From IMG/VR virus record IMGVR_UViG_2563366959_000001, positions 1-13,684 of that record: a DNA stretch of 13,684 nt. The stretch is one strand, 5' to 3'. Below the pieces are notes generated by a model, which was given only the letters and a program-made list of their open reading frames with translations, was not told the origin of the DNA and did not search any database. The position numbers and the translations under genes are program-made. The DNA is from a virus (lineage: Duplodnaviria > Heunggongvirae > Uroviricota > Caudoviricetes). The first letter of the stretch is position 1; every line of letters starts with the position of its first letter. Of the stretch, positions 12,447-12,763 are shown one piece after another.

Positions 12447-12668
12447 TTAATTACACAGTCGCATATCCTGAAGTAACACATCTATAGCTAACTTCACAGC
12501 GAGATCATCCAATTCATCATGGTGAAGCACTCGGATCATTCCCGCAATAGCATCTGCTGAAATAGCTTCCCCAGTAGCAATAACCTCAAGCAACGCCCCC
12601 CCTAGAATTTCGACTACCCGCTGGTGCAACACACCAAATTCCCCTTCGATTAACATGCAATCACCCAT
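12447..12668 (-). CDS. Small acidic hypothetical protein (73 aa from ATG; 88 aa if TTG at 12713), convergent with cI, lying between cI and oL
   Basis: ORF MGDCMLIEGEFGVLHQRVVEILGGALLEVIATGEAISADAIAGMIRVLHHDELDDLAVKLAIDVLLQDMRLCN; SD-like AAAGG 9 nt upstream of ATG; no recognised family. Confidence 0.45.
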   Translation of the reverse strand: MGDCMLIEGEFGVLHQRVVEILGGALLEVIATGEAISADAIAGMIRVLHHDELDDLAVKLAIDVLLQDMRLCN

Positions 12669-12763
12669 AACAATCAGCCTTTCCCCCTTGAAAATATCAC
12701 GCGGATACCACAAAAAATAAAATATTTTTGTTATCAGTCATTTATAATGTTTTTCATAAAATG

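Follow-up and report, generated by a model that had tools for sequence, protein, structure and literature searches.

A conserved small gene at the pL-side boundary of lambdoid immunity regions, with predicted remote likeness to the AriR-type connectors

In lambdoid prophages the interval between the repressor gene and the promoter pL is a recognised hotspot of accessory genes, and lysogen-expressed protective genes such as lambda rexAB and bstA of the Salmonella prophage BTP1 are found there (PMC7067206). Accessory genes of lambdoid phages that are transcribed independently of the core functions are known as morons (PMC2629481). On the host side, the closest described proteins are the small connectors YcgZ, YmgA and YmgB (the latter also known as AriR), encoded in the chromosomal ycgZ-ymgABC operon that is controlled by BluR, MarA and sigma-S (PMC6900184). 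These proteins bind one another and activate the Rcs phosphorelay (PMC6900184, PMC11709261); YmgB binds the kinase domain of RcsC (PMC6900184), and activation needs neither RcsF nor the periplasmic domain of RcsC (PMC11709261). Independently of Rcs, YmgB also contacts SpoT, at its TGS-helical domains, and causes ppGpp to accumulate, an effect for which Arg74 of YmgB is required (PMC10704370). The host ycgZ, ymgA and ariR genes are among the strongest LexA-independent genes induced by inhibition of replication (PMC11228462). The lambdoid immunity region is among the best-studied DNA in biology, yet the family of small immunity-region genes described here is nameless.

The stretch of DNA that was analysed (the window) comprises the 13,684 nt of the IMG/VR record IMGVR_UViG_2563366959_000001 and represents the early region of a lambdoid prophage, with the plus strand of the window corresponding to the leftward direction of lambda. 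The features that define the immunity region are listed below; the operators were located by a search for the pattern ATAAC-N4-GTTAT, which gave five matches with 0-1 mismatch in the window, all of them at OR and OL. The OL pair lies within 12764-12802, just where the original prediction, made from the sequence of the window, had placed oL.

9868-10806, minus strand: O
10839-11135, minus strand: cII
11252-11476, minus strand: cro
11513-11526, 11538-11551 and 11562-11575: the OR operators
11587-12294, plus strand: gene for a cI-type repressor with HTH_3 and Peptidase_S24 domains (Pfam and PHROG matches), convergent with the small gene
12764-12777: operator OL2
12789-12802: operator OL1
12777-12782 (TTGCAC) and 12800-12805 (TATCTT): hexamers, read from the sequence, of a pL-like promoter directed toward N
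13002-13340, plus strand: gene for an N-like antiterminator (phrog_271, E = 1e-29; N in phage 06-3462), which opens the pL operon and diverges from the small gene

Several other elements were seen elsewhere in the window. An ORF at 13294-13557 (plus strand), overlapping the 3' end of N, matches the 'Nun-like transcription termination factor' family phrog_5632 (E = 4e-42); its C-terminus is replaced in the window because of the insertion of an IS5-like element (13535-13684, annotated elsewhere as an ISKpn26-family transposase) whose start directly follows a TTAG at 13531-13534 and which is cut off by the end of the window. In identical prophages that lack this element, phage sequence carries on at this point, and the intact Nun-like gene in E. 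coli O145 RM11626 (locus L119, 7015-7353) has 112 codons. Rfam matches above the gathering score include the anti-GcvB sRNA AgvB (459-520, plus strand, 96 bits), overlapped by a sub-threshold match to AsxR, and STnc100 (521-711, minus strand, 145 bits), as well as, on the minus strand, C4 antisense RNA (5409-5493), isrK (5521-5597) and the c4 target a1b1 (5558-5610). Judging from these matches, the 5409-5610 segment can be read as an antisense control module of the P1/P7 type inside the prophage.

The subject of this work is a small ORF on the minus strand between cI and OL. The original prediction had given it as 12447-12713, convergent with cI, and it is indeed present in the ORF list at these positions. 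Three forms of it have to be distinguished.

12447-12656, minus strand: the favoured coding sequence, 69 aa plus stop (MLIEGEFGVLHQRVVEILGG...DVLLQDMRLCN), as called by PGAP in identical DNA
12668-12666, minus strand: an alternative in-frame ATG start giving 73 aa, the form annotated in phage 06-3462
12713 (TTG) to the stop codon at 12447-12449, minus strand: the longest mechanical ORF, 88 aa, as given in the ORF list

A product of 73-88 aa had been proposed. The 73-aa form is possible, whereas the 88-aa form appears unlikely because the homologues begin at ATG 12656 in the alignment of their N-termini, PGAP picks 69 aa and the annotators of phage 06-3462 picked 73 aa; besides, TTG 12713 lies upstream of the inferred -10 element (see below). 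A GAGG Shine-Dalgarno sequence and the start codon are conserved in the upstream alignment of the family. The protein is acidic, as predicted (pI 4.3-4.5, with 12-15 Asp and Glu against 4-7 Lys and Arg residues), carries no catalytic or DNA-binding signature, and is predicted to be a compact, cytoplasmic helical bundle. The GC content of the gene (0.45-0.47) is not distinct from that of the neighbouring genes.

In searches of protein families, the 88-aa form matched phrog_3946 of the PHROGs collection (E = 3.3e-29; residues 21-85 against profile positions 2-67 of 67), a family without an assigned function, while the Pfam and NCBIfam scans of the window protein returned no match. A profile search gave 619 clusters at 90% identity, nearly all of them of 65-69 aa; when 1.84 billion representatives were scanned exhaustively with HMMER, only 66 clusters at 50% identity emerged, all consisting of small stand-alone proteins. 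The family is restricted to Enterobacterales, where its hosts include Salmonella, Klebsiella, Enterobacter, Citrobacter, Escherichia, Serratia, Yokenella and Cedecea, among others. Across these genera the protein motifs are near-invariant, and the median pairwise dN/dS ratio is 0.11 (1404 pairs from 59 unique coding sequences), so the family is under strong purifying selection. The protein of the window represents a divergent branch: in full-length alignments it is 61% identical to its nearest relatives from outside E. coli and ∼ 30–47% identical to the canonical forms from Salmonella and Klebsiella, and the local alignments of BLASTP give somewhat higher values (66% and 34-53%, respectively). 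On account of this divergence, a profile search of contigs with the window protein as the reference confirmed only 5 loci.

Because of the low dN/dS ratio, the 619 clusters and the match to phrog_3946, it is virtually certain that the ORF is a real gene and not a chance one. The idea that it is a chance ORF or a decaying, functionless remnant could draw on the many phage records in which the ORF is left without annotation and on rare frameshifted or truncated calls in public assemblies (P0004-P0007). The position of these few calls is a tract of seven G (12596-12602, minus strand) inside the ORF, which suggests slippage or assembly error there. With an intact 69-aa frame in all 18 related loci of the window clade, purifying selection throughout the family, and a conserved promoter and position, a lack of function is scarcely credible. 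An additional Gly codon at the same G run was observed in public assemblies (P0002). The possibility that E. coli copies with a 517-nt match carry an interrupted ORF was rejected: their frame is intact and the indel is at another place.

The gene is carried by 56 of 50,697 phage records. The 516 bp around it are 99.8-100% identical to Stx1a-converting phages, the Stx2a phage PA28 and phage 06-3462, and this stretch is present in 50 of 5426 complete E. coli genomes. Where public records annotate the gene, they label it hypothetical. Our literature searches (for DUF2767, a RefSeq accession, AriR in combination with prophages, and immunity-region genes of P22-like phages) turned up no paper on the family, and the paper on the epsilon34 genome does not mention the small ORF. 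This family thus combines a fixed position, a conserved promoter and purifying selection with the absence of a name, a Pfam family or a literature.

The position of the gene is fixed as well. Sufficient flanking DNA was available for 108 loci. In 104 of them a cI-type gene, recognised with an HMM made from seven repressors, follows downstream on the other strand after 66-2595 nt (median near 1 kb). The homologue is flanked by N or other early-left genes on one side and by the repressor operon on the other, both of them on the opposite strand, in the annotated Salmonella P22-like phages MG40, S149/ST104 and S107, in Klebsiella prophages and in metagenomic contigs, and even members that are 31-33% identical to the canonical form hold the same place in the immunity region. 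The original prediction had called for a check of the conservation and position of the ORF in related immunity regions; the position is kept in these 104 loci, and the frame is intact in the 18 loci of the window clade.

The same prediction had placed the small gene in the role of rex-equivalent cargo, and here the relatives tell otherwise. The gap between cI and the small gene holds diverse genes on the cI strand, including those for P63C-domain, ParA-like and DUF1828/DUF6978 proteins and for proteins without assignment. It is these variable genes that are the true rex-like cargo, and the small gene is the constant boundary gene on the pL side. The window, with merely 152 nt between the stop codons of cI and the small gene, is at the short extreme and lacks cargo. 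Its cI stop codon is followed by a 124-nt untranslated spacer (12295-12418) up to the terminator, where related phages carry 0.4-2.5 kb of cargo; a mechanical 52-aa ORF at 12240-12398 (minus strand) had no family match. The gene ydaG of the Rac prophage was considered as an analogue and dropped, being a repressor-strand gene. In a corrected picture, the cI-pL interval accordingly contains, beside cargo that varies, a constant boundary gene of opposite orientation, at whose end the cI-operon terminator is found.

That terminator had been described as a hairpin 2 nt from the end of the ORF and shared by the small gene and cI. It is composed as follows.

12419-12444, plus strand: terminator of the cI transcript, consisting of the hairpin CCCGGC-TCCAGT-GCCGGG followed by TTTTATTT, called on the plus strand only by the terminator scan

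The stem (12419-12436) is in fact 10 nt from the stop codon of the small gene, and the T-run is found on the cI strand only. Among 91 unique loci, 57 have the CCCGGC-loop-GCCGGG hairpin 7-12 nt after the stop codon of the small gene; on the strand of the ORF, an A-run precedes it (a T-run on the cI strand) in 49 of these 57 loci and a T-rich tail follows it in 13. Because the T-run is on the cI strand, the hairpin is best read, from its sequence, as the terminator of the cI operon that forms one module with the small gene, and its shared use is not demonstrable.

This anatomy bears on the proposal that the transcript is the main product, an oop- or sar-like antisense RNA that reads through into the cargo genes and cI and lowers repressor output. 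The convergent arrangement in 104 of the 108 loci, the short distance between the two stop codons in the window and a hairpin with a T-run for the cI strand only, in the window and most loci, with no U-tract on the strand of the small gene, would all suit such a role. On the other hand, the dN/dS ratio and the near-invariant protein motifs indicate selection on the protein, the Shine-Dalgarno sequence and the start codon are conserved, and no Rfam family was matched in 12200-13000. We consider it very unlikely that the RNA is the main product; an antisense effect could add to the function of the protein but cannot be the whole story.

Upstream of the gene, the following elements were recognised.

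12691-12699, minus strand: inferred extended -10 element TGaTATTTT, read from the sequence (TG at 12699-12698, hexamer TATTTT at 12696-12691), with the start site expected near 12684
12711-12724, minus strand: T-rich tract ATTTTATTTTTTG at the -35/UP position, the version in the window of the family-wide TTTATTTTT motif of the upstream alignment
12730-12735, minus strand: isolated operator half-site GATAAC, centred at about -43 from the inferred start site and not a full operator

The upstream sequences differ between immunity types except for a common element, in which the TTTATTTTT T-rich tract is followed, after ∼ 14 nt, by TGn and a -10-like hexamer (CATACT, GATACT, TATGCT or TAAGCT across the family, TATTTT in the window) and then by the GAGG leader. 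After the upstream regions had been collapsed into 30 sequence families, 26 of them showed a TGn-extended -10 element at a distance of 20-40 nt from the start codon, against 4.4 ± 1.9 (maximum 11) in shuffled sequences. The hexamer TTATTT or TATTTT occupies the -35 position in 54 of the 91 unique loci. A generic sigma-70 promoter scan did not call the inferred promoter of the window (core 12691-12720) because its -35 element is weak. On this evidence it is very likely that the gene has its own promoter, which would be of the sigma-70 extended -10 type.

With regard to control by the repressor, the original prediction had put the promoter within or next to the oL operators, divergent from pL, and had deduced repressor control from this position. 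The inferred promoter does lie beside OL and back-to-back with pL. However, the operators do not contain it: measured from the inferred start site, the centre of OL2 is ∼ 86 nt and that of OL1 ∼ 111 nt upstream, the promoter core is outside both and at least 45 nt away, and no third OL operator overlapping the promoter was found within 2 mismatches of ATAAC-N4-GTTAT. Given these distances and the lack of a third operator, occlusion by the repressor is not implied by the anatomy, and the default expectation would be that the gene is expressed in the lysogen. A LexA box, which would fit a gene of the antirepressor type, was not found in the aligned upstream regions.

The half-site at about -43 deserves mention on its own. 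In two immunity types a half-site matching the phage's own operator half-site is found there, GATAAC in the window and GATAGC in ST104-type and Klebsiella phages (locus L005, about 2404-2420), and this is the position from which lambda cI bound at OR2 activates pRM. The half-site is polymorphic, and since the sister locus L112 of the window clade has GATAGC, its presence may reflect shared ancestry only.

A lysogeny-linked accessory role of the small gene is plausible; of the more specific functions that had been proposed (exclusion, immunity modulation or anti-defence), exclusion and anti-defence have fared less well. Superinfection exclusion or anti-defence in the strict sense, for example by an acidic decoy of an incoming phage function or a host defence, would agree with the location in a hotspot of lysogen-expressed protective genes, with the small size and acidity of the protein and with a small gene that has a promoter of its own. 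A search of the window protein against the defence HMMs of PADLOC-DB, however, gave no match at E up to 10, and the gene is a conserved element whereas defence and anti-defence cargo is typically variable. Its very strong conservation across genera is not of the arms-race kind, and the fold match described below is to a signalling connector and not to the known DNA mimics. We therefore regard this explanation as quite improbable.

The AlphaFold model of the window protein was poor (pLDDT 60.7), its Foldseek search against the PDB gave nothing below E 4.8, and the model was discarded. The model of a canonical member of the family (P0011; 45% identity with the window protein in the aligned columns), built on a diverse alignment of 20 sequences, was confident (pLDDT 87.3, pTM 0.72), with helices at 4-28, 35-45 and 53-63. 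This predicted three-helix fold can be superimposed on the crystal structure of YmgB (2OXL), which suggests that the small protein, by way of its P0011 relative, has an AriR-like fold. Three-helix bundles are a common fold. Against the viral structures of BFVD, the P0011 model had no Foldseek match below E 0.5.

Profile comparisons point modestly, though consistently, to the same proteins. With hhalign, the phage family aligned to YcgZ, YmgA, AriR and their alignments with probabilities of 60-72% and E-values of 3-9e-5, over 25-44 columns only, and the register was constant across the comparisons, which all covered a (V/I)LGxAV...L...S..I segment; reversed or column-shuffled controls gave E-values of 0.1 or worse. 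The comparison with AriR alone was weak (E 0.03). The Pfam family YmgB (PF10798, gathering score 22.3 bits) was absent from the results of the window protein and of 30+ family members, even with E-values of up to 10 allowed, while the same HMM gives AriR 90 bits and YcgZ 25 bits. When two profiles of the family were run against PDB sequences with HMMER, 2oxl was missed and the output was noise only (Symportin and USP28, E 0.05-0.4). On balance, judging from the profiles and the model, the small protein is likely to be a remote relative of the AriR family that falls outside PF10798. The original prediction had been of a protein that could not be recognised, and such it proved to be, a genuine gene in the accessory region between cI and pL, transcribed toward cI, with a match to phrog_3946. 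It had also named homology to a known unrelated protein as evidence against itself, and this holds in part: fold and profiles point to YcgZ, YmgA and AriR, suggesting modulation of host signalling and not exclusion in the strict sense.

A distant homologue (P0159, 65 aa, 37% identical) is encoded on a chromosome and not in a prophage. It lies near icd (locus L118, 3500-5100) and has its own terminator; a GGDEF gene and a DUF7661 gene precede it, and a true member of DUF2767 (PF10965) is encoded two genes further on. This neighbourhood recalls the ycgZ-ymgA-ariR cluster.

As to the function of the protein, we tentatively favour a phage-borne AriR-like connector, made from its own promoter, that binds a conserved and probably host-encoded partner, although our confidence in this reading as a whole falls somewhat short of even. 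The product would be a 69-73-aa acidic, cytoplasmic three-helix protein, remotely related to the YcgZ/YmgA/AriR connectors and encoded by an independently transcribed, conserved prophage gene. Transcription would proceed rightward, toward cI, and because the promoter core lies outside OL1 and OL2, synthesis of the protein would be probable in the lysogen and possible in the lytic cycle as well. Like AriR, it would most likely act by binding another protein and have no enzymatic or DNA-binding activity of its own. That it acts by binding a conserved partner is a view to which we lean slightly.

This view draws on the lack of coupling between the small gene and the immunity type. The identity of the small proteins does not correlate with that of the repressors (Spearman 0.06), and small ORFs that are at least 90% identical are paired with at least 7 types of cI. 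With a sequence so independent of the immunity type, one would expect a conserved partner, most likely a host signalling protein, the candidates being the kinase domain of RcsC (capsule, biofilm and motility) and SpoT (ppGpp). By analogy with AriR, one of these two, Rcs or SpoT, may be the partner, but we consider this rather doubtful. In an alignment by MAFFT the position of YmgB Arg74 (helix 3) is occupied by Asp (D-L-A-V-E/K-L) in both P0011 and the window protein; since this position is Asp in the alignment, on which the assignment depends, the same contact with SpoT is not expected in the phage family.

Conservation across immunity types would fit the conserved C-terminal domain of cI just as well as a host target. 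The small protein may alternatively be a part of the phage's own lysis-lysogeny circuitry that tunes establishment, maintenance or induction through a conserved phage or switch-associated factor, with the S24 C-terminal domain of cI, RecA, the CII/CIII-FtsH axis and the N-Nus complexes as candidate partners. The gene is invariably within the immunity region, at the OL boundary and inside the OL-OR interval, and the response of the host ycgZ-ymgA-ariR genes to replication inhibition (PMC11228462) ties the wider family to a stimulus that induces prophages. Lambda, P22 and 933W, however, have complete switches without the gene, which is in only 56 of the phage records surveyed; no DNA-binding or protease-related feature was found in the protein; and there is no co-variation with cI. 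A role in the circuitry is thus unlikely in our estimate, and a connector with a host partner remains the preferred reading.

Carried one step further by analogy, that reading would make the gene an overlooked AriR-like connector of lambdoid prophages, including Stx phages, that couples the lysogen to RcsC/Rcs or SpoT/ppGpp and alters the cell surface, susceptibility to superinfection or induction; this we put forward as a speculation that is rather doubtful. Rcs-driven capsule lowers phage adsorption and ppGpp affects lambdoid development, and either effect would be a plausible benefit to the resident prophage. If true, this would define a new class of lysogenic-conversion or regulatory factor that is absent from lambda itself and a direct line from a resident prophage to the envelope, biofilm or stringent-response signalling of its host. 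The gene is present in hundreds of prophages of Salmonella, Klebsiella, Enterobacter and E. coli, including Stx1a and Stx2a phages, so that such a link would bear on the physiology of STEC and Salmonella, on superinfection resistance and on prophage induction.

Compared with the known systems, the small gene shares the repressor-to-OL/pL interval with rexAB and bstA but little else. Those genes are co-oriented with cI, transcribed from the cI promoter and variable between phages, whereas the small gene is on the opposite strand, has a predicted promoter of its own and is a conserved element beside variable cargo; no similarity to rexAB or bstA in sequence or fold was found. Like the morons, it is compact, has its own predicted promoter and sits between core functions. 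Unlike the sporadic morons, it is fixed in position, the hairpin downstream of it serves the opposing cI operon and not clearly the gene itself, and its GC content does not set it apart.

Among uncharacterised proteins, the chromosomal small proteins of Enterobacterales that make up DUF2767 (PF10965, a profile of 67 residues), on which we found no papers, are of similar length. The chromosomal homologue P0159 is a weak match to this family (14.7 bits, E 0.032, below the Pfam threshold of 20.7 bits) and the hhalign comparison gave E 0.0015 in the same register, although the Pfam HMM had no match to the window protein.

The closest likeness is that to AriR/YmgB (PDB 2OXL, PF10798) and its paralogues YcgZ and YmgA. 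Both the phage and the host proteins are small, acidic, stand-alone, helical and restricted to Enterobacterales, share the (V/I)LGxAV...L...S..I motif in register (hhalign E about 5e-5) and lack enzymatic and DNA-binding motifs. The phage protein differs in being only ∼ 12% identical, under every HMMER and Pfam threshold, and in having neither the N-terminal extension of ∼ 25 residues nor the SpoT-contact Arg74 of AriR. The host genes are grouped in an operon, ycgZ-ymgABC, that adjoins bluRF on the chromosome, whereas the phage gene stands single in the immunity region of a prophage. Judging from sequence profiles and the predicted structure together, the small gene probably represents a divergent phage branch of the AriR-type small connector fold that has settled in a fixed niche of the immunity region.
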